DNA of 64,000 nt from a virus (IMGVR_UViG_3300037475_000211:3330-67329), one strand, 5' to 3'; numbered from the stretch's first letter, positions 1-52,088 are shown. Notes: generated from the sequence alone by a model not told the origin. Made by a program: numbers and translations.

Positions 1-62
1 TGAAGATGAACCTGGCACGAATGTTGCTAAACGTCCTAAATATAGTGCTGGGCAGAAGTAAT

Positions 63-485
63 ATGAATAAATTATTTAATGTGGGTGATGTTGTTTATGC
101 CGACATTGAAGAACGAGAAAATTTGGATTTATCTAAGTTAACTCCTGATGATATTGAAAGTAATTTTGAGGAGGGCATCATCAAATTTATTGATGAAAGT
201 GGTGTTGGAATACGAACAAATCATAAGAATATAGAAATGTATCCAGCATCAGCTCTTTATAGTCAAGAATTTTTTCTTGAACAAAAAAATCTAGCAGAAG
301 AAAACTATTCTAAATTAGAAAAAGAACTTATGTTAGAAGTTCAAAAAGGCGTTCAAATTTTGAAAGCCGCCAATCTTAAGGCTCAAGAACAGAATCTTTC
401 TTTATCTGAATTAGATAATGCGGCTCGATTACTTAGAGGCTTAATTGATGATATTGGTTGGAGCAGCTCTTCTTTAAGTTGTTAA
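63..485 (+). CDS. Hypothetical protein, C-terminal GW-x-x-S...C family (N-terminal SH3-like region plus helical region)
   Basis: Ends IGWSSSSLSC-stop; likely start is ATG at 63 (MNKLFNVGDVVY). Confidence 0.6.
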   Translation: MNKLFNVGDVVYADIEERENLDLSKLTPDDIESNFEEGIIKFIDESGVGIRTNHKNIEMYPASALYSQEFFLEQKNLAEENYSKLEKELMLEVQKGVQILKAANLKAQEQNLSLSELDNAARLLRGLIDDIGWSSSSLSC

Positions 486-4460: not shown

Positions 4461-5337
4461 TTGTATTTTAAAAGTAATAGTGATTATATTTCTCAAGGAG
4501 AATTAAGTATGCTGCGATTGCTTGCGGCAATAAAAACTCCTTCTTTATCATTCAAAGATGGATGGGGAGAAATAAAATCAATTCCTGATAAAGGTTTTGT
4601 TTTAAATTGTTTCATTTGTAATGATAGTTTGGAATCAAACTATGATGTTAATATGATTGTTATTCATGGTAAGTTACATTTAAATAATTTAATGAATAAA
4701 TTTTCTATAGAAGAAATTCTCAAATTAGAGTCTATGGCAAACTCTAACTGTTGGTGGAAAATAATTGACCATCAAATTGTTTGCAATATTTGTAATGTAA
4801 ACATTGGTGATGTACTTTTATCAACTGATATTTTTGATAAAGTTATTCTTCATGGAAGAAGACATATTGCTTTAATTTCCTTCTCATGACAGATTTAAAT
4901 AAAGATGAAATTGAAGTTGCATGTCAGCTTTCTTTAAGAAATAAAAATTTATCTCCAGAAGATCGTGCCGAAGTAATACAAGGGTTTTGTGGAAAATGGA
5001 TAAATTCCGGTATCTTTTGTTTTATTTGTAATGATAAATTAAAACAAGATGAGCCTTTTTCTAATCATATTAGGTCTCACATAAAAAAATTCATGGTTTA
5101 TATTTGAAGCCTTTATCTGAAAATCAAATTTCATGTTTATTACTTTTAGCTAAAAGGTCAGGTAGTACTGAAGACCGCTGGATGTCATCTTATGATGAGT
5201 TTAAATTCAAATGTAATATTTGTAATAAAATTTTAAGTAATGATTTTATTTATGATTTTGAATATGAAGGTAATATAATGCCAGATGTTATTCTTCATGG
5301 AAGTGAACATTTAATTAGTTTAAATATTTTTATATGA
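4461..5337 (+). other. Three tandem C2H2 zinc-finger small-protein genes (4461..4889, 4886..5107, 5104..5337)
   Basis: C[FN]IC...H(G)xxH repeats (two in the first ORF); ends ALISFS, KFMVYI, SLNIFI. Confidence 0.6.
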
Positions 5338-5669
5338 AATACTTAGAATTAGCTTGTCGAATTGCCGCGGGCGCTAGCTGGCAAGAAAAACATTTTCTTT
5401 TAGCAGCCGTTGCCATCCGTCAAGATGGTGCTATAGTAACCGCAACTAATTTAAGAACTCAAGATCGCGAACATTCGGCGCATGCTGAGCATCGCACACT
5501 TCGCAAGGCAGGGGCAGGAGCTATTCTTTATGTTGCTCGTATTGATCGATATGGTCAATGGGCAATGGCAAAGCCTTGTATTAAGTGTCAAGCGCTTATA
5601 AAGAACAAAAGAGTTAAGCGTGTTTTCTATACTGTTTCACCTGGAATTTATTCAGTGTGGGATGTTTAA
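5334..5669 (+). CDS. Zn-dependent deaminase (cytidine/dCMP deaminase superfamily)
   Basis: HAE and PCxxC motifs (AHAEH...KPCIKC). Confidence 0.85.
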   Translation: MKYLELACRIAAGASWQEKHFLLAAVAIRQDGAIVTATNLRTQDREHSAHAEHRTLRKAGAGAILYVARIDRYGQWAMAKPCIKCQALIKNKRVKRVFYTVSPGIYSVWDV

Positions 5670-5686
5670 TTTGAAAGAAATTTATT

Positions 5687-5971
5687 ATGACTGAACAATC
5701 AGATTTAGAAAAAGAATTTAAAGAGTCTGCCGAAAAATATTCAAGATTAATTGCTGCTAAAGTAGCACAAGCATGTCAATTGCTTTCTGAAGCTTGTGCT
5801 ATTTCAGAAGAGCATGGCATTCCTTTTGATTCCAATATATCTTTCCTTAGTCAAGGATATGTTCCAGATTCCTTTGCAACTAAATTCAAAGGATTAGATC
5901 GAGAAATAATGTATGAAGTTACTGGAGTGTATAACGAATATGAAGGTTGGCAGCATAGCCAAGTGTGTTAA
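5687..5971 (+). CDS. GW-x-x-S...C tail family protein
   Basis: Ends EGWQHSQVC; close paralog of 6659..6973 (GIPF, GYVP). Confidence 0.7.
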   Translation: MTEQSDLEKEFKESAEKYSRLIAAKVAQACQLLSEACAISEEHGIPFDSNISFLSQGYVPDSFATKFKGLDREIMYEVTGVYNEYEGWQHSQVC

Positions 5972-6630
5972 TTAGAGTTATGTCTAATTCCAGTTACTCC
6001 TTCTAATAAATTTTGTTTAGAACTTAATGGTCTTAAGTTGTTAAGTGACCAGCATAGTTTAAAGTTATCATCCTCCATAGATGTATATGGTAATGTTGAC
6101 TGTGGTATAATATGATCTATGCTCCAAGTCCAAGTTGACTGGTCATTATCATTCCATGTTTCTCTTTTATAGGGACCATGATTTTCCCAAGTCATCCAAG
6201 TTTCAAACTTAGACTTCAAGTAAAGTTTAAATTCATCCATAGTATATGGTACAAATTTCAAAAAACTCATTTGTTTACAGCTACCATTTGATTTAAGTGC
6301 TCTTGTTACTTTAGATGATAAATATTTTCGTAATTTCCAGGCAGGATTATTTTTTCTTTTATTACGCTCTCTAATATTAGTCGAAGATTTGGTTCTTTGT
6401 TTAGATAATCTATTTTGCTCTCTTCGCTTTGCAGTAATATTTCTTTCTCTAAATAATTCTTTATTATTTTCTCTGTATAGTTTCCTTTGTTTTTTAATTG
6501 TTTCGATATTATCTTCATGATATTTTTTAGAACAAAGAATACATGTTGCTCGTCTAGCTAATTTTTTAGAGTTTATAAAATAAAAATCTTCATCAGTTTT
6601 TAAAACTTGACATTTATTACAGGTTTTCAT
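5968..6630 (-). mobile_element. Free-standing HNH homing endonuclease
   Basis: N-terminal CxxC...CxxC, WMTWENHG, IDHIIP...NLRPL..KQN; antisense between two paralogs. Confidence 0.85.
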
Positions 6631-6636
6631 ATAAAA

Positions 6637-6644
6637 TATATATC
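6637..6644 (-). promoter_or_regulatory. GATATATA motif (putative late promoter) upstream of the HNH gene
   Basis: + strand tatatatc; the same motif precedes three other endonuclease genes. Confidence 0.45.
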
Positions 6645-6658
6645 GTAAGGAAAATAAA

Positions 6659-6973
6659 ATGACTAATTCAAATGAAGAATCTAAATCAGATCTTGAAATA
6701 GAATTTCAAGCAGCGTATGATAAAGCATTACCTTTAATTAATCTTCATATAAAGGAAGCTAAAGAAGCGATTGCAAAAGCAATTGAAATTGCAAACCAAT
6801 ATGGTATACCATTTAGTGCGGCAGTTTCTCCATTAAGAAATGGATATGTTCCGCGTTCTTTTGAAAGTAAATTTTCTGAACTTGATTCAGAAATAGTAAG
6901 TGAAATTTCTGGAGTATATGATCCAAATGGTGATGCTTTATATGAAGGATGGATTCATAGCGCAGTATGTTGA
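6659..6973 (+). CDS. GW-x-x-S...C tail family protein
   Basis: Ends EGWIHSAVC. Confidence 0.7.
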   Translation: MTNSNEESKSDLEIEFQAAYDKALPLINLHIKEAKEAIAKAIEIANQYGIPFSAAVSPLRNGYVPRSFESKFSELDSEIVSEISGVYDPNGDALYEGWIHSAVC

Positions 6974-7003
6974 TAAGTATATGTAATCATCAGGTAATTT
7001 AAT

Positions 7004-7243
7004 ATGTCAAATTTAGATAAAGAATTCGATTCAGTTGTATCTGAAGTACAAGATAAGTTAGAACAAGCTCAAAAATTGCTTGCTGAAGCCTTAGCCTTAA
7101 GTAAGAATAATAGTCTTACTTTAGATAAAAATCAAGTTAATACATTATTAGATGCAGTATATGATTTACCAACCAATCAAAATTGGTCTGAGTCAGATGA
7201 TACTACTGGCATTTGGAGCTCTTCATTAAATTATAATTGTTAA
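7004..7243 (+). CDS. W-S-S-S...C tail family protein
   Basis: LDKEF helix; ends GIWSSSLNYNC. Confidence 0.65.
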   Translation: MSNLDKEFDSVVSEVQDKLEQAQKLLAEALALSKNNSLTLDKNQVNTLLDAVYDLPTNQNWSESDDTTGIWSSSLNYNC

Positions 7244-7254
7244 AGGAAATTAAT

Positions 7255-7629
7255 ATGAATGATTATGCAATGGGGGCAATGCCTCCACAACAACATAAAT
7301 GGATGTTAGGTCGTTCTGTTGAAGAAATTAGAGCGATAACATTAACCTCAGAAGAATCTGGCAAATCAATTGATGAAGTAATATCTTCTGGTTCTTGGAA
7401 ACATAAATTTAATGAGCTTGAAATAGAGTATAATAATACTATTAATAGGATTAAATTAAAGATTTCTGAATCTGCTCTTCTCTTAAAAGAAGCTCAAGAT
7501 TTAGCTGCGAGTATAAATCAAGAAGGATTATATAATCTTTTTGATGAAGAGAATGAAAACGATATTATTCAACCTATATTTAATGAATTAGAAAACATTG
7601 GTTGGGCAACATCATCCTTGAGTTGTTAA
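7255..7629 (+). CDS. GW-x-x-S...C tail family protein
   Basis: Ends IGWATSSLSC; ATG at 7255 follows AAGGA. Confidence 0.65.
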   Translation: MNDYAMGAMPPQQHKWMLGRSVEEIRAITLTSEESGKSIDEVISSGSWKHKFNELEIEYNNTINRIKLKISESALLLKEAQDLAASINQEGLYNLFDEENENDIIQPIFNELENIGWATSSLSC

Positions 7630-7630
7630 T

Positions 7631-7894
7631 ATGAAAAAAAAGAAACTTTTACCAATAGAAAAAGAATTTATTCTTTTAACTAAGAATATTAATAAGAAAT
7701 TAGAGATTGCTAGGCTTGCCTTACTTGAAGCAAATGCTTTGGCTCAATCCAAAGGTCATATATTAGTTGACTTTGAATATTCATTTGATAATGAGAGATG
7801 GGGTTTGCCTCCTGATTTTGAGCTTCCAGAAATTAAAGTTGATGGCATCAAAGAAGCTTTTAATAAAGTGGGGTGGAGTTCTTCTCACTGTTAG
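7631..7894 (+). CDS. GW-x-x-S...C tail family protein
   Basis: IEKEF...EANALA helix; ends VGWSSSHC. Confidence 0.65.
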   Translation: MKKKKLLPIEKEFILLTKNINKKLEIARLALLEANALAQSKGHILVDFEYSFDNERWGLPPDFELPEIKVDGIKEAFNKVGWSSSHC

Positions 7895-7904
7895 GATTTG
7901 ATTT

Positions 7905-8813
7905 ATGATTTTAATTGGTAGTCGTGCCTTAAAATTAAGGACTCCTTTTTTTAAAAGGGAGTGTAAAGATTTTGACTGGATTTGTACTCAAGAAGAATTA
8001 AACCTTTGGCTTGAGAAAAATCTATCTAAAATTGGTGAGCATAAGGCTTATTATTTAGAAGGCAAAGATAATAAATATATTATTGAAGGTGAATCTATTT
8101 GTGAATTCGAAATAGTAAAGCCTAATACTTCTACAGAGTTATTTTATAATTTAGTAAAGTCAGATCCTGATTCTATTGAATCTTCTTTTGGTTTAATTCC
8201 AAGTTTAGATTTATTATTTACTCTTAAATCATCTCACAAATATCTTAAGAATAGTCCCCATTTTTGGAAGAATTTAAAAGACTATCATTTAATGAAAAAT
8301 TTAGGAGCTAAAGTTCGTCCTGAATATAAAGATTTTCTTAAGATGCGAGAAAAAGAAACTTATACTTATCTTCATCCTAAGCTCAATCAAAATAAAAAAG
8401 ACTTCTTTGCTGACGATGGATTGACATATACTTATGATCATGATGATATTCATAAAGCAGTAGCTTTATATGATCGTCCTGCCTATACTTATTACATGAA
8501 AGATGGAGAACAAGTCTTTTCAGATAAGGAAAAGTTCTTTGCTTGCCCAAGAGAAATTCAGTTAGCAGGGGTTCTTGAGGAAAGTTCAGTGCTTGCAATT
8601 GAAAGATCTTTAGTTCCGCATCCTGGTGTAATGACGCCAGAACAAGCTTGGCACTTTGCTTATGGAAAAGTTTGCAGTTCTATAACTTCCGGATGGTTTA
8701 GAGAATTTGGTTATGATAATGCTCCAGAACTTCTTAAATTATATCCAAAAGATTATTATGATAAGTTTCAAAAAGCATTAGCTGATGGAATGGTTAAGCC
8801 CCATAAAGGATAA
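7905..8813 (+). CDS. Putative Pol-beta-superfamily nucleotidyltransferase-like phage protein
   Basis: N-terminal ILIGSRAL...KDFD fits hG[GS]...DxD; C-terminal HDDIH. Confidence 0.6.
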   Translation: MILIGSRALKLRTPFFKRECKDFDWICTQEELNLWLEKNLSKIGEHKAYYLEGKDNKYIIEGESICEFEIVKPNTSTELFYNLVKSDPDSIESSFGLIPSLDLLFTLKSSHKYLKNSPHFWKNLKDYHLMKNLGAKVRPEYKDFLKMREKETYTYLHPKLNQNKKDFFADDGLTYTYDHDDIHKAVALYDRPAYTYYMKDGEQVFSDKEKFFACPREIQLAGVLEESSVLAIERSLVPHPGVMTPEQAWHFAYGKVCSSITSGWFREFGYDNAPELLKLYPKDYYDKFQKALADGMVKPHKG

Positions 8814-8816
8814 AAT

Positions 8817-9521
8817 ATGTTTCCGATTATAATTACAGCAATAATTATTGCAATGTTTATTGCCAATGTTTTCTTTGTAGAATATGAAAGCTATGGCTGG
8901 ACTACACTATCAATGATAGTAACTGGTGTTGCAATTTATTGGTTTAAATTATGGGGACTCCCTCAATGGATTGTAAATCATGGACTATTATGTTTAGCCT
9001 TTGATGGAGCTTATATTGTAATAGGAATAATTTGGTCTTTCATTAAATGGTTTTCATATCTAATTTCTTATCGAGATCATTTTTTAGATATTAAAAATGA
9101 TTATGTTAATTCAAGGAATGATTTAATTGAAAGTCAATGGAAATGGATTCAAGATAATTATATTCTCAATGATGAAGGCAATTTAATTACAAAAGATATT
9201 TTGCCATTCATTCATCCTTATGGAATGAAAACAAATAATGTAATTGAAAAGTATCTTTCACAAGTAAAAGATGGCAATAAATTATATCATAATTTTTCTG
9301 ATGATAAAAGAAAATATTGTAAATTTTACAAACCATTAGCTTATGATAATAAAAGTAAAATCGTAGCGTGGATTTGTTATTGGCCATTCAGTTTAATTGG
9401 TACATTGATTAATGATCCTCTTCGTCGATTGGTAAACTTTTGCTTTGCAAAGCTTAAAGCAACTTATCAAAAAATGTCTGATAGTGTCTTTAAAGAGTTT
9501 CCAGATAAAAATGAGTACTAA
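8817..9521 (+). CDS. Membrane protein, hypothetical
   Basis: Three N-terminal hydrophobic segments; WICYWPFS. Confidence 0.55.
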   Translation: MFPIIITAIIIAMFIANVFFVEYESYGWTTLSMIVTGVAIYWFKLWGLPQWIVNHGLLCLAFDGAYIVIGIIWSFIKWFSYLISYRDHFLDIKNDYVNSRNDLIESQWKWIQDNYILNDEGNLITKDILPFIHPYGMKTNNVIEKYLSQVKDGNKLYHNFSDDKRKYCKFYKPLAYDNKSKIVAWICYWPFSLIGTLINDPLRRLVNFCFAKLKATYQKMSDSVFKEFPDKNEY

Positions 9522-9735
9522 TTATTTGTTTGATTATAAAACAAAAACTGGAGTATATGTTGATACCCTTAACAAATCTAAATGGCATTATTTTAATGGA
9601 GTTCTTCATAGATTAGATGGACCAGCAATAGAATATGAGTCTGGTGTTTGTTATTGGGTTTATAATGGTAAACATATAGCATGTGAATCTCAAGAAGAAT
9701 TTGAGAGAATAGTTAAACTATTGGTATTTATATGA
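9511..9735 (+). CDS. HRxDGPA-repeat small protein with C-terminal tag
   Basis: LHRLDGPAIE...SQEEF; ends KLLVFI. Confidence 0.65.
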   Translation: MSTNYLFDYKTKTGVYVDTLNKSKWHYFNGVLHRLDGPAIEYESGVCYWVYNGKHIACESQEEFERIVKLLVFI

Positions 9736-10010
9736 CATTTGAAAAAATAATAATAGAAATTAGAAGAATTCACTATATTGCTACTAACAAAGATAGTGAT
9801 GTGCATATTGTTTATAAGGGAACTTCTCATGGTATAACCAAGCCTTGGAACATTAAAGTAGATAATAAAGAATCAGATGGAACAACTGAATTAGAGGCTG
9901 CATTAAATCTTTTTAATCTTGTTAAGAATGATCTATCTGATAGAATTAAGTTTATGGAAAATCAAGCAGCATCTTGGAAAGAAGCTTTAAACGGATCTAG
10001 AGCAAATTAA

Positions 10011-11316
10011 ATGTGTAATGAGTGTACTTTCTCTGAAAGTAAAAATGTTAAACATAATACTCTAAATTTAATTAGAGTGGATAAGGATGGAAAATATCAT
10101 TGTAAAACTTATCCGTGTTATGAATTGTTTTTTGAAAATAAAAAGCTTTGGTCTGCATATAAAATTCATGGTCGACTTCACAGAGAAGACGGACCAGCTG
10201 TTATTGAAATTTCTAAAGATGGCGTAGAACATTATAGTTGGTATATTGACGGATTTTCGTTGAAGGTTTCTTCTCAAGAAGAATTTGTAAATTCTACCTC
10301 TTATAAAGAGTGGAAACTAAGAGCATTCAAATAATGTGTGATGAATGTTTTGCAGAAGACATTGATAGTGAAAAACTTATTAATACAAATTATATTAAAA
10401 TAACTAATCATTTTAGAATAAATACAGACAAATTTCATTGTTTAACTGGTCCAGCAAGAACTTTTGTTTCTAAAAATAAAATTTATTATTACTGGTATGT
10501 TGATGATATTTGGATACATTGTTTTTCTCAAAAAGAATTTGAGTCTTCTAAAGAGTATAGAGTTTGGAAGTTAAAGGCTTTCACATAATGTGTAACGAAT
10601 GCTTTGAAGTTAAAGAGGGTTGTAATTTAATGAGAAGATCAATTAGTAATGGATCTTCTCATTGTTTATCTGATCATGCAATTATACTTAATTATTATAA
10701 GGCTGGATTAAAAATAGCTGATTGGTATATTAATGGGATTCGTATTAATGTAGGATCTCAAGAAGAATTTGAAAAGAGCAAAGAATATAGAGAGTGGAAG
10801 CTGCGAGTGTTTAAATAATGTGTAATGAATGTTTTATCAAAGAGTTTAACTATTTTCACGGAAAATTAGTTCAAAGAATTCAAAGATTTAATAAAAGTCA
10901 TTATCATTGTTTAACTGAACCCGCTAGATTATTCATTTATAATGATAATTTTGGCAGTTCTTTTGCCGACGTCGAAAAAGGTTGGTTCATTAATGGTATT
11001 GAAGTAAAAGTTTCTTCCCAAGAAGAACTAAAGAATTCTAATGAATATAGGATATGGAAGATGAGGGCATTTCATTAAAATAATGTGCAATGAATGTACT
11101 AAAAAAGATTTTAATCTTGCTGATGGAGTTTTAATTCAAAGAATTAATAAAGGATATTATCATTGTTTAACTTCTCCTGCTAGAGTTTTTATTAATAACT
11201 CTGGTAAAGTAGATAAAGATTGGTATATTGGTGGCATGCGAGTTAGAGTTTCTTCCAAAGAAGAGCTTGAGAAATCTTTAGAGTATAGAGAGTGGAAGAT
11301 AAAAGCATTTAAGTGA
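10011..11316 (+). repeat. Array of five tandem paralogous genes (starts 10011, 10334, 10588, 10818, 11083)
   Basis: Each begins MC[ND]EC, has HC, W[YF][IV]xx, S[QK][EK]E and ends WK[LMI][KR][AV]Fx; several joined by TAATG overlaps. Confidence 0.85.
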
Positions 11317-11325
11317 GGAACAAAT

Positions 11326-12432
11326 ATGTCAAACTGGGAACCACAAGTAGTAAAAATAGAAAAAGTAATTCATCATCCTAATGGTGATGCTTTAGATATT
11401 GCTTATGTTCTAGGAGATTATCCAGTTGTTGTACGACGAGGCGAATATAAAGTTGATGATTTAGCGGCGTATTTACAAGTTGATACGATAACTCCTGACA
11501 CAAATCAATTTTATTTTTTATGTCCAAAGGAATATGAAAAATATCTAGATGGTGATGAAATTAAACAAAGACAAATAGGTCCAAAATATCCTGTCGGTTC
11601 TGTTCCAGAAAAATATAGAGTTCTTAAGGCAAAGAAAATAAGAAATTTCTATTCAGAAGGAATGTTAGTTCCAGTACCAATTGTTAAACCTATACCTTTA
11701 TCTTTAGGAGATTCAGTTGTAGAAGCTTTATCTCTTAAAAAATATGAGGAAGAAAACGAAGAGAATCTACCTAATGTATTTAAAGCTAAAGGAACTAATG
11801 CTGCCCCACCGCCAAAAGGTTGGAGCATTCCGTATTATGACCTTGAAAATGTTAGGAAATATATTAAGTGTGTTGAAGAAGAAAAAGATATTATTCTTAC
11901 TGAAAAATTGAATGGTAGTAACGCCTCATTTTGTTTTGATGGCAATGATTTAGTTGTTAAGTCTCGTAACTATTATAAAAAATTAGATGAAGAAGATGAT
12001 ATGTGGATCGAGCTTGCTACAAGATTAAATCTAAAAGAGAAGCTATCTAAATATCCTATGATGGTTTTGTTTGGAGAATGTATTAATCAAGTAAAGGGAT
12101 TTAGATATCACACCAATTTAGTTGATGGTAAGTTATTAACAAATCTTATTTGTTTTGATATCTTTGATGTTAAAGCTGGAAAGTATTTAGACTATGATGA
12201 CTTTATCACGATAATAAAAGATCTAGATTTAGAATCTGCACCTTTGTTATATAGAGGTCCTTGGACTTCAAAAGAGGAAATGTATTCTTTTGCCGAAGGT
12301 AAATCTATTTTAAATGATAAAATAGTTAGAGAAGGATGGGTCCTTTCATTAGGTAAGGAAAGATTTGAGCCGAAACTTAATTCTAGATGTAAATTAAAAT
12401 TAATTGGAGAAGGTTATAATTTATCAAAATGA
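11326..12432 (+). CDS. ATP-dependent RNA ligase (Rnl2/DRB0094-like, N-terminal OB/tRNA-binding domain)
   Basis: HPNGDAL N-terminus, motif I TEKLNGSN, FGE, FDI, REGWV, C-terminal KLI. Confidence 0.85.
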   Translation: MSNWEPQVVKIEKVIHHPNGDALDIAYVLGDYPVVVRRGEYKVDDLAAYLQVDTITPDTNQFYFLCPKEYEKYLDGDEIKQRQIGPKYPVGSVPEKYRVLKAKKIRNFYSEGMLVPVPIVKPIPLSLGDSVVEALSLKKYEEENEENLPNVFKAKGTNAAPPPKGWSIPYYDLENVRKYIKCVEEEKDIILTEKLNGSNASFCFDGNDLVVKSRNYYKKLDEEDDMWIELATRLNLKEKLSKYPMMVLFGECINQVKGFRYHTNLVDGKLLTNLICFDIFDVKAGKYLDYDDFITIIKDLDLESAPLLYRGPWTSKEEMYSFAEGKSILNDKIVREGWVLSLGKERFEPKLNSRCKLKLIGEGYNLSK

Positions 12433-18633: not shown

Positions 18634-19392
18634 ATGACGGACAAATTAAAGAAAAAGATTTATGATCTTGTAGAAGCTGAAGGTGAGCACGACTTCTTTG
18701 ATCATTTTATTCTTACTTTAGTTGTACTTAATATTTTTGCCGTAGGATTAGAAACAATTGAAAGTATTAAAGCACATTATTATAATCAATTCTTTTACTT
18801 TAGATATTTTTCTATTCTAATATTTTCAATAGAATATGTTTTAAGAATTTGGTGCTGTAATATTCTTCCAGAATATAGTCATCCTTTGTGGGGTAGATTA
18901 AAGTTTGCAATTAGACCAATTGTTTTAATAGATTTAATATCTATTTTCCCATTCTATTTTCCAATTGGCAAATTAGATTTAAGGCATCTTCAAATGTTTA
19001 AGATGCTTCGATACTCACATTCTGTTCAAGATTTGATTAAAATAATTAAAACACAGGGTAAAGCATTGCTTAGTGGTATTATTTTAATTGGTATGTTAAT
19101 GGTAATTTCTGGATCTATTCTTTATTATTTAGAATATCCAGAACAACCAAAGGTTTTTTCTAGTATACCAGCTTCTATGTGGTGGGCAATTGTCACCATT
19201 ACTACTGTTGGATATGGAGATATGTTTCCAATATCTTTCTTAGGTAAGCTATTTGCAGCAATAACTGCTATATGTGGCATTGGTTTATTTGCCTTGCCAG
19301 CAGGTATTATGGGTGCAGCTTTCTTAGATAATGTGAAAGAACAAAGGGCTCCATCTAAGTTTTGTGGCAATTGTGGAAGTAAACATGACTGA
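18634..19392 (+). CDS. 6-TM voltage-gated-type potassium channel
   Basis: WWAIVTITTVGYGD selectivity filter; S1-S6 hydrophobic segments; C-terminal CxxC. Confidence 0.92.
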   Translation: MTDKLKKKIYDLVEAEGEHDFFDHFILTLVVLNIFAVGLETIESIKAHYYNQFFYFRYFSILIFSIEYVLRIWCCNILPEYSHPLWGRLKFAIRPIVLIDLISIFPFYFPIGKLDLRHLQMFKMLRYSHSVQDLIKIIKTQGKALLSGIILIGMLMVISGSILYYLEYPEQPKVFSSIPASMWWAIVTITTVGYGDMFPISFLGKLFAAITAICGIGLFALPAGIMGAAFLDNVKEQRAPSKFCGNCGSKHD

Positions 19393-29452: not shown

Positions 29453-29527
29453 TGTGGAATCTTCTAACTGGCAGGAAAAACGGCTTTGAACCGTTCAATA
29501 TAGGATCGTTCCCTATTTCCACAACCA
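29453..29527 (+). tRNA. tRNA-Gln(TTG)
   Basis: TGTGGAA/TTCCACA acceptor, AACGG-CTTTGAA-CCGTT anticodon arm, encoded CCA; T loop ATCGTTC is non-canonical. Confidence 0.85.
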
Positions 29528-29532
29528 AACAT

Positions 29533-29615
29533 GGTGATATGGCGTAACTGGTAGCCGCACAATACTTAAAATATTGCGTTAATTCGTGGGGGTTCAAATC
29601 CCTCTATCACCACCA
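29533..29615 (+). tRNA. tRNA-Leu(TAA)
   Basis: GGTGATA/TATCACC acceptor, CAATA-CTTAAAA-TATTG, variable arm, TTCAAAT, ACCA. Confidence 0.92.
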
Positions 29616-34299: not shown

Positions 34300-35460
34300 A
34301 TGTCGATTCAACAATTACTAGATATTCCATTTCGAACATTCATTTATACAACAGGTTGCGGCGCTGGTATCCAAAATAAACTTTGGAAATTACCTGGATG
34401 CTCTTCGTTTTTAGCTGGCTGTGGTTTTCCATATGCTCCCGAGTTAACATCTGAAGTTATTGGATATACTCCAAGTAAGTTTGTTTCTAAAGAAACTGCT
34501 ATTGAATTAGCAATGTCAGCGTATATGAAAGCATTTGATGCTAGTAAATCAGATATGAATGTAATTGGTATTGGTTTATCTGGTTCAGTAGCATCGGCTA
34601 TTGAGCATAGAGGGGATCATAGGTTGTATGTAGCAGCTGTTCATAACAAAGGTTGTGATGTTACTTACGTTAAACTATCTAAAGGTAGTGGTGCTATTAA
34701 ACGAGAAGAAGATGGTGATATTTCCAATTCTTTAATTTTAAAAACTCTATATGGTGTTCTTGGTCTAGAAGATAAGATGATGTTTAAATGGTCTTATCAA
34801 GGATCTTGTTATACTCCAGAAATTGAATTATCAGAAGAGTCTGAGTTACTTTATTCCTTAATTCAAGAACGACCATTTTTTAAATCAGATGGCAGCAAGT
34901 GTTCTAGCCCAGAATTCTTTTCTGGAGAAGATTATTCAAATTATGTTTTTTATCCAGGTAGTTTTAATCCACTTCACTATGGACACCTGAATGCTAAGAA
35001 GGCTGCATTTAATGCAGCGGTTCATTTAAATAATGATATAAAGGATACTATTTTTACGACTTGTGTTAATCCTCCGCATAAAAATAAACTATCTTCTGTT
35101 GAAATTTTACAAAGAATTAAGCAGATGCGCGGACAAAATTTTCTATTAACTTGGGACGATCCATATTATACTCACAAAGCAAAGATGTTTCCAGGGAGCA
35201 ATATTATTATAGGAACAGATGTTTTGTTATCGATATTTGATCCTAAATGGAATCTTGATCCAATAGAGATGCTTAATTCTTTTAAAGAAAATAGAGTTAG
35301 ATTTTTAGTTCGAGGAAGACTTATCGATGGTAAGTTTATTAGTTTAGCTGATTGTAGGGCACAAATAAAATTATTAAATGATAATAATTATTATAATTTG
35401 TTTGCTCATGTTGATGGTAGAGATGATATTTCTTCTACTGAATTAAGAAATAAAAAATGA
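34300..35460 (+). CDS. CinA/PncC-like domain fused to a NadD-like nucleotidyltransferase
   Basis: N-terminal TGCG...PGCSSF....PY...A..LA; C-terminal PGSFNPLHYGH, IGTD, ISSTELR. Confidence 0.75.
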   Translation: MSIQQLLDIPFRTFIYTTGCGAGIQNKLWKLPGCSSFLAGCGFPYAPELTSEVIGYTPSKFVSKETAIELAMSAYMKAFDASKSDMNVIGIGLSGSVASAIEHRGDHRLYVAAVHNKGCDVTYVKLSKGSGAIKREEDGDISNSLILKTLYGVLGLEDKMMFKWSYQGSCYTPEIELSEESELLYSLIQERPFFKSDGSKCSSPEFFSGEDYSNYVFYPGSFNPLHYGHLNAKKAAFNAAVHLNNDIKDTIFTTCVNPPHKNKLSSVEILQRIKQMRGQNFLLTWDDPYYTHKAKMFPGSNIIIGTDVLLSIFDPKWNLDPIEMLNSFKENRVRFLVRGRLIDGKFISLADCRAQIKLLNDNNYYNLFAHVDGRDDISSTELRNKK

Positions 35461-36605: not shown

Positions 36606-36977
36606 ATGAAACAAAGTAAGAATATTAATTTAATATTTATCAATGTTGTGGCGGCTTCTTTATTAGCTGGCTGTTCTACACCACAAGATAATAAGCAATG
36701 TGTTGATGAAAATGGTGTAGTGATTGATGAATCTAATTGTAATCCTGATAGTGTTGGTTATAGCCCTCACTATCGCTGGTATTATGGTGGAGGTTTGTTT
36801 AATAGGGGCATGCGAGTAAATGGTGGCAGCTATTATCCTAACAATGGTCGTTCTTATGTAACACCTTCACAAAGAGCTATTTCTGGTGGAGAAAGTGTTT
36901 CTGGAGGATCGAAAGTATCTTCTCCAATTAGTCGTGGTGGATTTGGAACAACCGGGCATTCTTCAGGCGGAGAATAA
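36606..36977 (+). CDS. YgiB/DUF1190-like lipoprotein
   Basis: Lipobox LAGC, two Cys, C-terminal SRGGFG; directly upstream of the Gsp-synthase-like gene. Confidence 0.7.
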   Translation: MKQSKNINLIFINVVAASLLAGCSTPQDNKQCVDENGVVIDESNCNPDSVGYSPHYRWYYGGGLFNRGMRVNGGSYYPNNGRSYVTPSQRAISGGESVSGGSKVSSPISRGGFGTTGHSSGGE

Positions 36978-36978
36978 G

Positions 36979-38127
36979 ATGTTAAGAAAAACTACTTCTG
37001 TAAGAAAAAATTGGGAAAAGACTATTGAATCTCAAGGGTTTTTATTTCATTCAGTTGAAGGTAAACCTTATTGGGATGAGTCTGCATATTATGAGTTTAC
37101 TTCTGCACAAGTAGATGAATTAGAAGCTGCTACTAATACTTTACATGAGATGTGTTTAGCTGCTGTACAGCACGTTATTGACAACAAACTATATGCTAAG
37201 CTTCATATTCCTGAATGGGCAATTCCTTTAATTGAATATTCTTGGAACAACGAAACACCTGCTATTTATGGTCGATTTGATTTTTCTTATGATGGAAAAT
37301 CTTCTCCCAAGATGTTAGAGTATAATGCGGACACTCCGACTTCTTTATTAGAGTCTGGTGTTATTCAGTGGTTTTGGATGAAGGATAAGTTTCCTGCCGC
37401 CGATCAATTTAATTCTATTCATGAAAAATTGGTTGCCAAATGGACTGAGTTAAAAGACTATTTGAATTTTGGTCCCTTATATTTTACTGGACTTGATATG
37501 ATTGAAGACTATATGAATCTTCAATATATGATGGAGACTGCTAAGCAAGGTGGACTTGAAGTAAAGGAAATTAATATTGCCGATATTGGTTGGCATAATA
37601 TTGATCAAAAGTTTATTGATAATGAGTACTATACCATTACTAATATGTTTAAACTTTATCCTTGGGAGTGGTTATTGCATGAAGAATTTGGCAAAAACAT
37701 TGCAGCATGCTTTGATAAGACTTTTTGGATTGAACCACCATGGAAACTTATCCTTTCTAATAAAGGAATTCTACCTATTTTATGGGAATTAAATCCAAAT
37801 CATCCTAACTTGTTGCCGGCATTCTTTGATAAGAATCCTGCTCTTGGAGATAAATTTATTACAAAACCGCTTTATTCTCGTGAAGGTTCTAATATAACTA
37901 TTTTTGATGAATCTTCTAAAGAGCTAAAGGTGATGGAAACTGATGGTGAATATGGTGAAGAAGGAGTTATCTTCCAAAAGTTTGCACCATTAGCTGATTT
38001 TGATGGCAATCATCCAATGATTGGTAGTTGGGTGATTGATGGAGTTTCGGCTGGTATTGGTATCAGAGAAGATAAGACTTTGATTACTGGAAATTTTAGT
38101 CGCTTTGTTCCGCACATCTTTAAATAA
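36979..38127 (+). CDS. Glutathionylspermidine-synthase-like ATP-grasp ligase (YgiC-like)
   Basis: YWDESAYY, YGRFD, EYNADTPTSLLE, FKLYPWEW, SNKGIL, SREG, SRFVPH. Confidence 0.92.
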   Translation: MLRKTTSVRKNWEKTIESQGFLFHSVEGKPYWDESAYYEFTSAQVDELEAATNTLHEMCLAAVQHVIDNKLYAKLHIPEWAIPLIEYSWNNETPAIYGRFDFSYDGKSSPKMLEYNADTPTSLLESGVIQWFWMKDKFPAADQFNSIHEKLVAKWTELKDYLNFGPLYFTGLDMIEDYMNLQYMMETAKQGGLEVKEINIADIGWHNIDQKFIDNEYYTITNMFKLYPWEWLLHEEFGKNIAACFDKTFWIEPPWKLILSNKGILPILWELNPNHPNLLPAFFDKNPALGDKFITKPLYSREGSNITIFDESSKELKVMETDGEYGEEGVIFQKFAPLADFDGNHPMIGSWVIDGVSAGIGIREDKTLITGNFSRFVPHIFK

Positions 38128-45153: not shown

Positions 45154-45238
45154 GCTGTTATGATGGAACTGGCAGACATCCACGTCTAAGAAGCGTGTGC
45201 CGTAAGGTGTACAGGTTCAAGTCCTGTTAACAGCACCA
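45154..45238 (+). tRNA. tRNA-Leu(AAG)
   Basis: GCTGTTA/TAACAGC acceptor, CACGT-CTAAGAA-GCGTG, long variable arm, TTCAAGT, ACCA. Confidence 0.9.
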
Positions 45239-45272: not shown

Positions 45273-46277
45273 ATGCATGAAATTTTATTAGCTAAACCAA
45301 AATTAGATCCTTCATTTATAGATTCCAGTGTGGGTGAACCATATCTTATCAGAGATAATCTCTTTGAGATGTTTACTTGGGATGAAGATGTTGGCGGAGT
45401 AGATTTATCTTATCCTTATCCTCAAGGTTATGAACCATTAGTTAAGATGCTGGAAGATAAACATCAAGCTCCAGTAATAGTAACTAATGGCGCGAAACAA
45501 GCCTTAGGAGCCGCCTTTTATACTCTTCATAAGTTAGGCAAAACTAATATGAAGATGCGTAGTCCTTACTGGGCATTGATTCCACCATTAGCTGATATGC
45601 ACGGAATAACTCCTGTCTTTGATGAATCAAATAAAGATATTAACAGTTATTTGTGTATAGCACCTAATAATCCTGATGGGTGGCATCCACTTAATTTAAA
45701 GGCATTAGCACAAGAATATAAAGATAAAGGTATTCCATTTATACATGATGGGGCGTACTATAATAGGATTTATATTCAAAATCAAGACTATAATGCACCT
45801 ATTGGTGATGTTCAAATTTATACATTCTCTAAATCATTAGGATTATCTGGACTTAGATTAGGCTATGCGGTTTGTCACAATACAGAATTTTATAATCATA
45901 TGTCGGCTTATATGGAAGCTATGACGGTGGGAGTTTCAACGGTATCTCAACGCTATTTGTATAATTTATTACAGGTTATGAATTTAGATAAGCCTTTGAC
46001 TGAAGCGTTTGAAGATAAATGCTTTGAGGAATTAAATCAAAATAAATATCTTTGTGATAATATAAATCCTGAAGTATTAGAAGTTCCCATGGAGGCAGTT
46101 CAAATGCCAGGTATGTTTGGTTGGTATAAAGTTGGACCTAAGGCTGACTTTAATAAAGCAAAAATACATTTTGTTGGTGGTAAACTATTTGGAGCTGAGG
46201 ATATGGTTAGACTTAACTTAGCTTTCAAAAAAGAAACAATTAAAGAGATAGTTAACAGATTAAATAATTTAGTATGA
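45273..46277 (+). CDS. PLP-dependent aminotransferase, class I/II
   Basis: TNGAKQAL, PNNPDG, DGAY, FSKSLGLSGLRLG, VRL. Confidence 0.88.
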   Translation: MHEILLAKPKLDPSFIDSSVGEPYLIRDNLFEMFTWDEDVGGVDLSYPYPQGYEPLVKMLEDKHQAPVIVTNGAKQALGAAFYTLHKLGKTNMKMRSPYWALIPPLADMHGITPVFDESNKDINSYLCIAPNNPDGWHPLNLKALAQEYKDKGIPFIHDGAYYNRIYIQNQDYNAPIGDVQIYTFSKSLGLSGLRLGYAVCHNTEFYNHMSAYMEAMTVGVSTVSQRYLYNLLQVMNLDKPLTEAFEDKCFEELNQNKYLCDNINPEVLEVPMEAVQMPGMFGWYKVGPKADFNKAKIHFVGGKLFGAEDMVRLNLAFKKETIKEIVNRLNNLV

Positions 46278-50975: not shown

Positions 50976-52088
50976 ATGAAAAAATATATTACACTATTGA
51001 TTGCCGTACTTGCTACGGTCTTTACGGCGAATGCTTTTGCATTTACTCCCCCAGATAAGCCTGCTAGTGGCTGGTATATCCTTGATCAAGCCAATAAATT
51101 AACTGAAGATCAAAAAACCAATCTCAATAAAAAGATTGATGGAATTAATAAAAATACTAAAAATGAATTTGGTGTTTTAATTATTCAGTCAATGGATGGA
51201 GATAACATTGAAGATGTTGCTCAGAATACTTTCCGAGCTTGGGGAGTTGGTAAGGCTGGATTAAATAACGGAGTACTATTAGTTATTTCTGTAGGTGATC
51301 GTAAGATGCGATTGCAAACTGGCAAAGGTGTTGAAGGTGATTTGCCAGACTTACGAGCAAAAGATATTTTAGATGAAAATCTTAAACCTTTCCTTAAGAA
51401 GGGAGATTATTATGGCGGTATTGATTCTACTATTAGTGCAGCCTCTTCTTTCTTAGAGAGTAGAGCTAATGCTCCAGTGGAAACTGTATCAAATACTTCT
51501 GGTGCAACTTCGAAAAATTCTGGAGTGGAATGGCTAATAGTATTATTGTTCTTGGGAATTTTTGGTGGAGTTGGTCTTATTTCTTGGCTTGTAAGCCGAA
51601 GTAAACGTAAACGAGAAGAAGAAAGCAATCGTCTTTATGAGTCTTCAAGAATCTTTGCGCTTCAGCAAGAAAGAGCTAGACTTCAAGAAGCTATGTTCGC
51701 AAAACCTTATCACATAGATAATAGCTTTACTTCAACCCACACTTCAAAAACTGAAATTTCAGCAACTGCCATTGGTGTTGGTGCAGTAGCCGCCGCAGCG
51801 GGTATTGGTGGTATTGCAATAGCAACAACTGCAGTTAGTCGTGCTGCTGAAGCTAAGAAGCGTAAAGCTGCTGAAGAACGAGAGGCTGAAGCTGTTAAGC
51901 GTAAAAAGGAAGAAGAAGATGCGACGGCGCGTAGACGTAGTGAAGAAAGTTCATATTCGTCATATTCTTCTTCAGATAGTGGAAGCAGCTATAGTAGCTA
52001 TGATAGTGGAAGTAGTTCCAGCTATGATAGTGGTGGAGGATTTGGTGGTGGTGACAGCGGCGGCGACGGCGGGTCTAGTGATTTCTAG
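50976..52088 (+). CDS. TPM-domain (YgcG-like) membrane protein
   Basis: Signal peptide, DQANKL, WGVGK...NNGVLL, G.G.EG.LPD; Gly/Ser tail ending GGSSDF. Confidence 0.88.
   Translation: MKKYITLLIAVLATVFTANAFAFTPPDKPASGWYILDQANKLTEDQKTNLNKKIDGINKNTKNEFGVLIIQSMDGDNIEDVAQNTFRAWGVGKAGLNNGVLLVISVGDRKMRLQTGKGVEGDLPDLRAKDILDENLKPFLKKGDYYGGIDSTISAASSFLESRANAPVETVSNTSGATSKNSGVEWLIVLLFLGIFGGVGLISWLVSRSKRKREEESNRLYESSRIFALQQERARLQEAMFAKPYHIDNSFTSTHTSKTEISATAIGVGAVAAAAGIGGIAIATTAVSRAAEAKKRKAAEEREAEAVKRKKEEEDATARRRSEESSYSSYSSSDSGSSYSSYDSGSSSSYDSGGGFGGGDSGGDGGSSDF

Follow-up and report, generated by a model that had tools for sequence, protein, structure and literature searches.

A phage nucleotidyltransferase-fold enzyme linked to small acidic proteins with a W-x-x-S...C C-terminal tag

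The DNA analysed here, called the window throughout, is a 64-kb stretch (64,000 nucleotides; IMGVR_UViG_3300037475_000211:3330-67329) of a 67-kb virus record of IMG/VR, with a CheckV completeness of 15%. It has a G+C content of about 30%, and one strand carries nearly all of its genes. Six open reading frames (ORFs) on the + strand end in a tag of the form G-W-x-x-S-(x1-3)-C. Five of them are tightly arrayed ahead of a gene for a nucleotidyltransferase-like protein (hereafter the enzyme), and the sixth lies near the start of the window (Table 1). Among the 306 stop-to-stop frames of at least 50 amino acids in the whole window, 13 end in Cys, and those with a W..S..C ending are exactly these six ORFs. 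Between 7004 and 8813 the genes are spaced by a 7-nt overlap, then by gaps of 1 and 10 nt; a scan for promoters and terminators over 5200-9700 gave signals no higher than those of shuffled sequence. The closest relatives of the enzyme sit on contigs of 95-480 kb, so the window is probably a fragment of a jumbo phage. A gene on the opposite strand resembling HNH/endonuclease VII interrupts the array between the first two copies and overlaps the stop of the first by 4 nt. It is not conserved in related loci: it lies within the array, yet outside the module described below.

The six proteins align with the consensus LEKEF...A..LL.EA.ALA...G..F......GW..S.C, their N-terminal helix being common to all. 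A preliminary description of this DNA had quoted six Cys-ended W-x-x-S tails, an upstream helix of the type LEKEF...A..LL.EA..LA, and a nucleotidyltransferase-like gene carrying HDDIH. All six ORFs were found with the quoted endings, and the helix was recovered in their alignment. The downstream gene is predicted to encode a nucleotidyltransferase fold with conserved GS, DxD, and E-x-E motifs, and HDDIH turned out to belong to an invariant HDxxH motif.

The association between tag and enzyme holds well beyond the window. Scanning IMG/VR with an alignment of the enzyme yielded 80 loci (36-70% identity, 74 distinct enzymes), in which we recorded ORFs ending in W-x(1-3)-S-x(0-5)-C as near when they were on the same strand and within 2.5 kb. 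This scoring of homologue neighbourhoods, which the preliminary description had proposed as a check, was positive for 71 of the 80 loci, with tail ORFs upstream in 69 and only downstream in two. Three more loci (L011, L012/L013) have one or two residues after the Cys (...GWAPSNVCW and ...AWTPSGCSY). The tail-less loci number six, and in three of these the contig starts less than 330 bp from the enzyme. The tail-less locus L006 has a family member without a tail beside an inserted gene (7397-8059) just ahead of the enzyme. The same pattern ends 194 of the 2426 same-strand ORFs within 2.5 kb, 11 of the 3775 farther away, and 7 of the 7867 on the opposite strand. There is one near tail ORF in 11 loci, and there are two in 25, three in 19, four in 11, five in one, and six in four. 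The layout of several partners to one enzyme, already noticed in the window, is real and conserved.

The reverse search gave the same picture. A scan with an alignment of the canonical small protein, using the body pattern YGMGGxYx[PG] and leaving the tail unused, identified 57 loci. A same-strand enzyme is present in 55 of these, mostly 200-1600 bp downstream. One of the other two (L136) ends 235 bp past the match, which makes L131 the sole real exception. In the full genomes of RB69, phAPEC8, and two IMG/VR records with a CheckV completeness of 100%, 11 of the 12 profile matches adjoin the enzyme; the twelfth is 30 kb from it, in a 368-kb phage. The background counts, the body-pattern loci, and the enzyme loci together exclude chance as the source of the clustering of tails. 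Clustering of all neighbours within 5 kb in 81 loci, including the window, found no further gene in common: the enzyme occurs in 81 of 81, the tail clusters in 60, 12, 8, and 7, and the best other family in 11. The module has two components linked both ways, the enzyme and one to six small proteins.

Of 50,697 phage records, 733 contain a match to the enzyme, among them RB69, phAPEC8-like coliphages, T4-like phages of Aeromonas and Acinetobacter, and jumbo phages. The module occurs in phages of Proteobacteria and on contigs binned into metagenome-assembled genomes (MAGs) labelled Bacteroidota, Cyanobacteria, and Saccharibacteria. Among 185,579 species genomes, the enzyme was found eight times, always on MAG contigs, with tails upstream in seven of the eight. 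Three tail ORFs immediately precede gp192 in phAPEC8. In RB69, three copies (ORF136c, ORF137c, and ORF139c/138c) precede ORF134c, between e.3 and e.2. ORF139c has the family body and no tail, ORF138c ends in ...GAWVSSPALC, and stops fall inside the profile match (L083 2521-2827); a frameshift seems to have divided one tail protein into these two. In L100/L101 a tail protein seemed to be fused in frame to the enzyme; this was rejected, as the upstream open frame differs from that of the small protein.

We collected 206 tail ORFs, of which 182 are unique and 163 of these fall in one BLAST single-linkage cluster. The proteins are 45-232 amino acids (aa) long (median 94) and acidic (median isoelectric point [pI] 4.5, below 5 in 141 of 182), with acidic residues ahead of the tail Trp. 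The residue at W+3, which the regular expression did not impose, is Ser in 182 of 182, and the terminal Cys is the only Cys in 92. The span from Trp to Cys is eight residues in 125 ORFs (G-W-x-[SPAT]-S-S-x-x-C) and six in 46 (W-x-S-S-x-C), the rarer spans being seven (five ORFs), nine (four), ten (one), and four (one). The canonical protein can be written ...AE.IADE.G..FSFS.AYGMGG.YYP-acidic-GW.[SAP]SS..C, its conserved residues being A, F, YGMGG, W, S, and C, and six canonical library members match phrog_899 (1e-15 to 2e-18).

A hidden Markov model (HMM) of the bodies alone, run against ORFs stripped of their last 12 residues, matched 148 unique ORFs. The motif ends 138 of them and is followed by one or two residues in 6; the remaining matches are the split RB69 copy and three motif-less proteins. 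This test is partly circular, the model having been trained on tail-selected sequences. An exhaustive profile search of 1.84 billion representatives (50% identity) returned 1996 at E<=0.001, 459 of them at E<=1e-10; a word-indexed search with the small-protein profile gave nine. The best 150 of the 1996 comprise 146 that end in the motif and 4 with one extra residue. By sequence comparison, the small proteins are one family, in which the Trp, the Ser, and the (near-)terminal Cys of the tag are essentially invariant while the rest drifts. Pfam identified no family in the small proteins, HEPN families included, and one of ten long tail proteins has a recognisable extra domain (WYL_2, 4.1e-08).

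The six copies of the window have no PHROG match at E<=0.01, but they join the family through BLAST single linkage and the tail-protein profile. The first copy of the array has 15 BLAST relatives among related loci. The distal protein has as BLAST relatives family members in L007/L008 and the fourth copy of the array (7237-7629), and the tail-protein profile did not pick it up at E<=0.01 in the genome-wide search. The tail of this fourth copy (GWATSSLSC) has the canonical eight-residue form. In related loci the enzyme-adjacent copy often has the short tail form, as it does in the window.

The enzyme matches two Pfam domains of unknown function (DUFs), DUF7277 at residues 1-83 (4.6e-11, 43.7 bits) and DUF7275 at residues 104-282 (1.3e-64, 218.1 bits), both above their curated cut-offs of 27 bits each, and corresponds to phrog_2141 (4e-97). 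An AlphaFold2 model built from 45 sequences (predicted local distance difference test [pLDDT] 94) has an N-terminal core of the Pol-beta nucleotidyltransferase type followed by a helical C-terminal region. Foldseek against the PDB returned two matches at E<=0.001, both MenT1 (E 7.6e-4), and next ANT(2'')-Ia, JHP933, MenT3/TglT, and CCA-adding enzymes. In an exhaustive structural search of 48,161 chains, the nine best matches are all nucleotidyltransferases (Z 5.5-7.7): MenT1 (7.7; root-mean-square deviation [rmsd] 4.0, 153 residues aligned), MenT3 (7.3), MenT4 (6.8), H. pylori 4ok0 (6.5), Megavirus poly(A) polymerase (6.2), 5uvd (6.1), ANT(2'') (6.0), LnuA (6.0), and TM1012 (5.5). All nine modify a hydroxyl group or RNA 3' ends. 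The alignments with MenT1, MenT3, and MenT4 cover model residues 1-275, with 153-162 residues aligned at Z 6.8-7.7.

The residues expected of such an active site are kept across the 45 aligned enzymes. In the hG[GS] motif G5 and S6 are each present in 44, and the metal pair D22 and D24 is present in all 45. On a predicted strand (65-70), position 67 is Glu in 40 and Asp in 4, and position 69 is Glu in 40 and Asp in 2. K108, H111, and K122 are also found in 45 of 45. The invariant positions of the C-terminal region are H179-D180-x-x-H183, E225-E226, E233-R234, and R266, and K255 is invariant in this alignment and almost so in one of 73 sequences. With its fold, the enzyme looks catalytically competent from this conservation.

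The C-terminal region stands apart. Residues 100-302 folded alone (73 sequences) gave a pLDDT of 90.5, and these 203 residues have no structural relative at Z>=5 among the 48,161 chains (best Z 4.5). Its H...HD residues had raised the idea of an HD-domain phosphohydrolase, but no HD protein is among the 50 matches listed. Foldseek placed the FtsH protease domain on top, at E 0.038 and probability 0.21. A zincin-like reading of HDxxH is not supported; the FtsH protease-domain matches are weak (E 0.038-0.16, probability about 0.2, rmsd >20 A). A Pfam scan of the enzyme at E<=1 returned DUF7275 and DUF7277 alone, and hence no AbiEii/DUF1814. Searches of PADLOC and NCBIfam gave no match, searches of PDB sequences with the enzyme and with the small-protein profile nothing significant, and the ESM Atlas no usable lead. 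The label 'putative antibiotic resistance protein' given to a homologue in one phage record has no support here. Cys257 of the enzyme is near-invariant, and we considered its pairing with the tail Cys. The two do not strictly covary: Cys257 and tails occur together in 102 enzymes, 11 have Ala, Ser, Met, or Gly at 257 and still have Cys-tailed partners, and 6 have Cys257 without a nearby tail ORF.

More distant enzymes, judged from five phages (KVP40.0037, Vibrio K412_0176, Gordonia Cucurbita gp15, Streptomyces Beuffert gp203, and Mycobacterium prophiT49-2 gp90), keep GS, DxD, K108, H111, HDxxH, and EE, have Ile at 257, and have no tail ORFs nearby. Their neighbours include a different family of small proteins (...GGGEG.GE...F[KR]..GYY.S[YW]D...EV.P), mostly downstream and in one or two copies. 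This family is joined by a chain of BLAST pairs (3e-13, 2e-10, 1e-7, 3e-5, 3e-4, and 3e-3, for a nominal 1-Mb database); a direct BLAST of KVP40.0036 against Cucurbita gp16 is not significant, and the family rests on the chain of other pairs. Because the sister clade has small-protein neighbours of its own, the enzyme family overall, as judged from these neighbourhoods, is accompanied by small partner proteins, those with the W-x-x-S...C tag belonging to one large clade. In Bacillus phage G, the gene immediately ahead of the enzyme homologue (gp205) encodes gp204 (L086 3613-3966), acidic and helical, whose Ser-rich end ...EEEETSSSW closes with Trp and contains no Cys.

The best structural matches of the enzyme belong to systems with a comparable layout. 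In MenT/MenA and AbiEii/AbiEi, a Pol-beta nucleotidyltransferase core is likewise followed by a helical region, and a small gene likewise lies upstream. The enzyme also has a conserved GS-motif Ser where MenT3 is phosphorylated (PMC11375011). Unlike AbiEii/DUF1814, the enzyme has about 170 extra residues with invariant motifs of their own and no structural relative. Unlike MenA and AbiEi, to which they are unrelated, the partners come in one to six copies and share an invariant C-terminal tag. MenT and AbiEii systems are cellular toxin-antitoxin (TA) loci, whereas the module is found in virulent phages, with just the eight MAG-contig loci mentioned above among species genomes. Because the enzyme has no profile match to DUF1814, the module is placed by sequence outside DUF1814/MenT, as a Pol-beta nucleotidyltransferase with a dedicated small protein partner.

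Pol-beta enzymes that nucleotidylylate proteins include MntA of the MntA-HepT type VII TA system, GlnE, GlnD, and DrrA, whose known acceptors are Tyr residues in folded domains. In MntA-HepT, an enzyme of the nucleotidyltransferase fold transfers a nucleoside monophosphate (NMP) to a hydroxyl side chain of the partner encoded alongside. Here the putative acceptor would be a Ser in a C-terminal tag, and the enzyme families differ. The partners of these enzymes are HEPN toxins or metabolic enzymes, unlike the small tail proteins, which are not the HEPN partners with Rx4-6H of MNT-HEPN systems. The matches to ANT(2'')-Ia and LnuA (Z 6.0 each) concern the N-terminal core; these enzymes O-nucleotidylylate a hydroxyl of an acceptor that is not a nucleic acid. 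In contrast to the enzyme, they are small and single-domain, act on small molecules, and have no protein partner.

These results lead us to favour a scenario in which the enzyme acts on the invariant Ser of the tail, whose hydroxyl would accept an NMP or a phosphate; we give it a probability of about 40%. Here we infer the contact between enzyme and tail, the role of the Ser as acceptor, the group transferred, and the biological role. One component would be an active nucleotidyltransferase of the Pol-beta superfamily (DUF7277+DUF7275, phrog_2141). The other, the small acidic protein (phrog_899), has an N-terminal helix, a hairpin-like motif (...F-S-F-S..Y-G-M-G-G.Y-Y-P), an acidic linker, and the C-terminal tag G-W-x-x-S-(x1-3)-C. 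The tag would be the element recognised by the enzyme, and would enter it. The enzyme would then use a nucleoside triphosphate (NTP) to modify the Ser at W+3, by O-nucleotidylylation or by phosphorylation as in MenT autophosphorylation, while the (near-)terminal Cys would be required for docking or a follow-up reaction. The modified small proteins would act early in infection, in host take-over or counter-defence. We prefer the tail Ser as the acceptor because the structural relatives modify hydroxyl groups, because several partners per enzyme look like substrates, and because MenT active sites can phosphorylate Ser or Thr near the NTP: PMC11375011 describes how an active-site Thr or Ser hydroxyl of MenT1 and MenT3 takes phosphate from the bound NTP. 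The one to six partners per enzyme fit several substrates better than a 1:1 inhibitor. A bolder form of this scenario, which we regard as doubtful, is that a MenT-like enzyme with a novel second domain puts a nucleotide, or a nucleotide-activated Ser-Cys crosslink, on the W-x-x-S...C tag and so arms diversifying small acidic effectors of early infection, the sister clade doing likewise with its second, unrelated partner family.

Several observations weigh against a modification of the tail Ser. No tail ORF is present at L062/L068 (one identical enzyme) or at L090, where the flanks are complete. Tails are just slightly more similar within than between loci (0.244 versus 0.194, and 0.323 versus 0.239 at matched body identity), which gives no clear signal of co-evolution. 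The structural similarity on which the enzyme's assignment draws is moderate (Z <8, Foldseek E about 8e-4). The tail-less sister clade retains K108, H111, HDxxH, and EE with a different partner family, which suggests that the conserved chemistry is independent of the W-x-x-S...C tail. Finally, the closest structural relatives, the MenT proteins, target tRNA rather than protein and have regulators as their small upstream partners, a point in favour of the main rival discussed next. Co-folding of the enzyme with the tail protein 5687-5971 gave an interaction prediction score from aligned errors (ipSAE) of 0.00 in both runs, which weighs neither for nor against binding.

The main rival, which we judge rather unlikely, is regulation as in MenAT. 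The enzyme would be a nucleotidyltransferase directed at RNA, for instance at the 3' ends of tRNAs, and would either shut down the host or repair phage or host tRNAs; the small proteins would be its regulators or inhibitors. Equally tentatively, the helix and tail of these proteins would attach to the active site or close by and might induce the GS-motif Ser6 to be autophosphorylated, as MenA1 does on MenT1. There is a precedent in PMC11375011, where the N-terminal helix of the small partner MenA1 triggers MenT1 autophosphorylation. The top structural matches are MenT1, MenT3, and MenT4, the order of small genes and then a tightly coupled nucleotidyltransferase is that of toxin-antitoxin genes, and Ser6 is kept in 44 of 45 enzymes. 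Host phages also have tRNA genes, with three in the window and a cluster beside the Gordonia phage homologue. A weak hint comes from P0130, a 630-aa protein of one contig that joins DUF7277 and DUF7275 to a PHA02142 oligonucleotide-binding (OB) fold and to an RNA ligase domain; window 11326-12432 encodes a ligase of this same type. The fusion may be genuine, or an artefact of gene calling or of a frameshift. Yet this fusion is a single sequence, and just 8 of the 80 loci have an RNA ligase within 8 kb; in 5 of the 8, from closer relatives of the window phage (59-70% enzyme identity), it is downstream and on the same strand. Up to six paralogous partners per enzyme also depart from the 1:1 pattern of antitoxins, it is not obvious why an inhibitor would keep W-x-x-S...C unchanged in about 2000 sequence clusters, and no sequence match relates the enzyme to AbiEii/DUF1814 or the partners to any antitoxin family.

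The preliminary description had instead likened the locus to the leader-plus-core precursors of peptides that are synthesised ribosomally and then modified post-translationally (RiPPs). In lanthipeptide biosynthesis, Ser is activated and Cys is then added, and in the prochlorosins many LanA genes are served by one LanM. By analogy, the tail Ser could be activated as an NMP or phosphate ester and converted to dehydroalanine, to which the Cys thiol would add in a thioether (lanthionine-type) ring. Alternatively, the C-terminus could be cyclised in some other way or set free as a small product. The several genes would be copies of a precursor. We hold both forms to be improbable. The invariant Ser and Cys, spaced by one to three residues, would allow plausible ring sizes; several short genes with a common region precede one enzyme, as in multi-precursor clusters; and the highly conserved C-terminal region (HDxxH, EE) could bind a metal and contribute a second activity. 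Against this, the Pfam scan and the clustering of neighbours found in the conserved module no LanB, LanC, LanM, LanKC, YcaO, radical-SAM enzyme, flavin decarboxylase, leader peptidase, other protease, or exporter. The bodies, in acidic proteins of 45-232 aa, look folded and conserved, unlike disposable leaders. The conserved element is the C-terminal tag and not a leader, and the tail is conserved rather than diversified while the body varies, the reverse of most leader/core systems. An exported peptide is of no obvious use to a phage-infected cell, and we know of no precedent for the elimination of an NMP ester. The other suggestion made at that time was a conjugation system; for a ubiquitin-like form of it, the motif's place at the C-terminus is the sole support. 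The least probable reading is that the tail addresses a third party, as a tag for docking or metal binding, for instance to some conserved machine of the host or to a Zn site in common; the enzyme would then be just a functionally associated neighbour that acts, for example, on the same host target and not on the tail. Short acidic C-terminal linear motifs with an aromatic residue are typical docking tails, such as those of the single-stranded DNA-binding (SSB) type; the distant enzyme clade pairs with a partner family lacking this tail, and the near-invariant Cys257 and HDxxH could share a metal with the tail Cys. But the two-way linkage at 200-1600 bp, seen across phages of Proteobacteria and the MAG contigs mentioned above, speaks for a partner that moves along with the tail, and the 11 enzymes without Cys257 still pair with Cys-tailed proteins.

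The surroundings of the module contain further small-gene arrays. A gene of the CMP/dCMP-deaminase fold (5334-5669) immediately precedes the tail-gene array. Between the module and the RNA ligase gene, the region 9445-11316 (+) encodes at least six small paralogues (about 77-107 aa) that end in ...SQEEFE.S.EYR.WK[LM][RK][AV]F[KTH], and in L012 a similar array, ending in ...EEYWRLVKLKALW, lies downstream of the enzyme. Small paralogues with a zinc-finger-looking C-x-I-C-[ND]...H-G..H, for example ...FICDKEF...CEHGLQH and ...FICNDKL...HIRSH, are encoded at 2172-2399 and 4461-5337 (+). Elsewhere in the window are genes for an ion channel (18634-19392, +; Pfam Ion_trans 1.3e-27, Ion_trans_2 4.6e-15), a cytidylyltransferase-like protein (34300-35460), a glutathionylspermidine synthase-like ATP-grasp protein (36886-38127, +; GSP_synth 2.3e-149), an aminotransferase/alliinase-like protein (45273-46277), and a TPM-domain protein (50976-52088).

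Table 1. Coordinates of the module, of other genes of the window, and of the second small-protein family in related phages.
Feature	Location	Strand	Remarks
Distal tail protein	6..485	+	ends DIGWSSSSLSC; 159 aa from ATG 6, 140 aa from ATG 63; additional N-terminal region
Tail protein	5687..5971	+	94 aa, pI 4.6; tail EGWQHSQVC (7-residue W..C form)
Tail protein	6659..6973	+	104 aa, pI 4.5; tail EGWIHSAVC
Tail protein	7004..7243	+	79 aa, pI 4.05; tail GIWSSSLNYNC
Tail protein	7237..7629	+	130 aa from TTG 7237 or 124 aa from equally possible ATG 7255; ends IGWATSSLSC
Tail protein immediately ahead of enzyme	7631..7894	+	87 aa; ends VGWSSSHC, short 6-residue tail WSSSHC
Enzyme gene	7905..8813	+	302 aa; starts MILIGSRAL...KDFDW, contains YDHDDIH
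HNH/endonuclease VII-like gene	5968..6630	-	phrog_1035 endonuclease VII 9e-12; weak HNH_4
RNA ligase gene	11326-12432		PHA02142 OB fold + RNA_ligase
tRNA genes Gln(ttg), Leu(taa), Leu(aag)	29453-29615 and 45154-45238		
Second small-protein family	L084 3549-3845; L153 4991-5356; L151 4582-5274; L152 4606-5276; L085 4603-4893		Vibrio, Streptomyces, Mycobacterium, Gordonia phages

Existing catalogues list the enzyme solely under two DUFs and one PHROG of unknown function, and its partners solely under a PHROG. We found no literature on DUF7275, DUF7277, or phrog_2141, nor on RB69ORF134c/136c/137c, NP_861824, YP_007348445, KVP40.0037, or such a module, supplementary tables lying outside the search. 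The module is present in hundreds of sequenced phages, many of them large, where both parts are annotated as hypothetical or DUF proteins. Such invariance of a tag in about 2000 sequence clusters, together with its tie to a single enzyme, is the mark of a specific chemistry or recognition. With RB69 and E. coli K-12 the module is directly testable, and it may yield a new protein modification, a new control of MenT-type nucleotidyltransferases, or a new class of phage early effectors.

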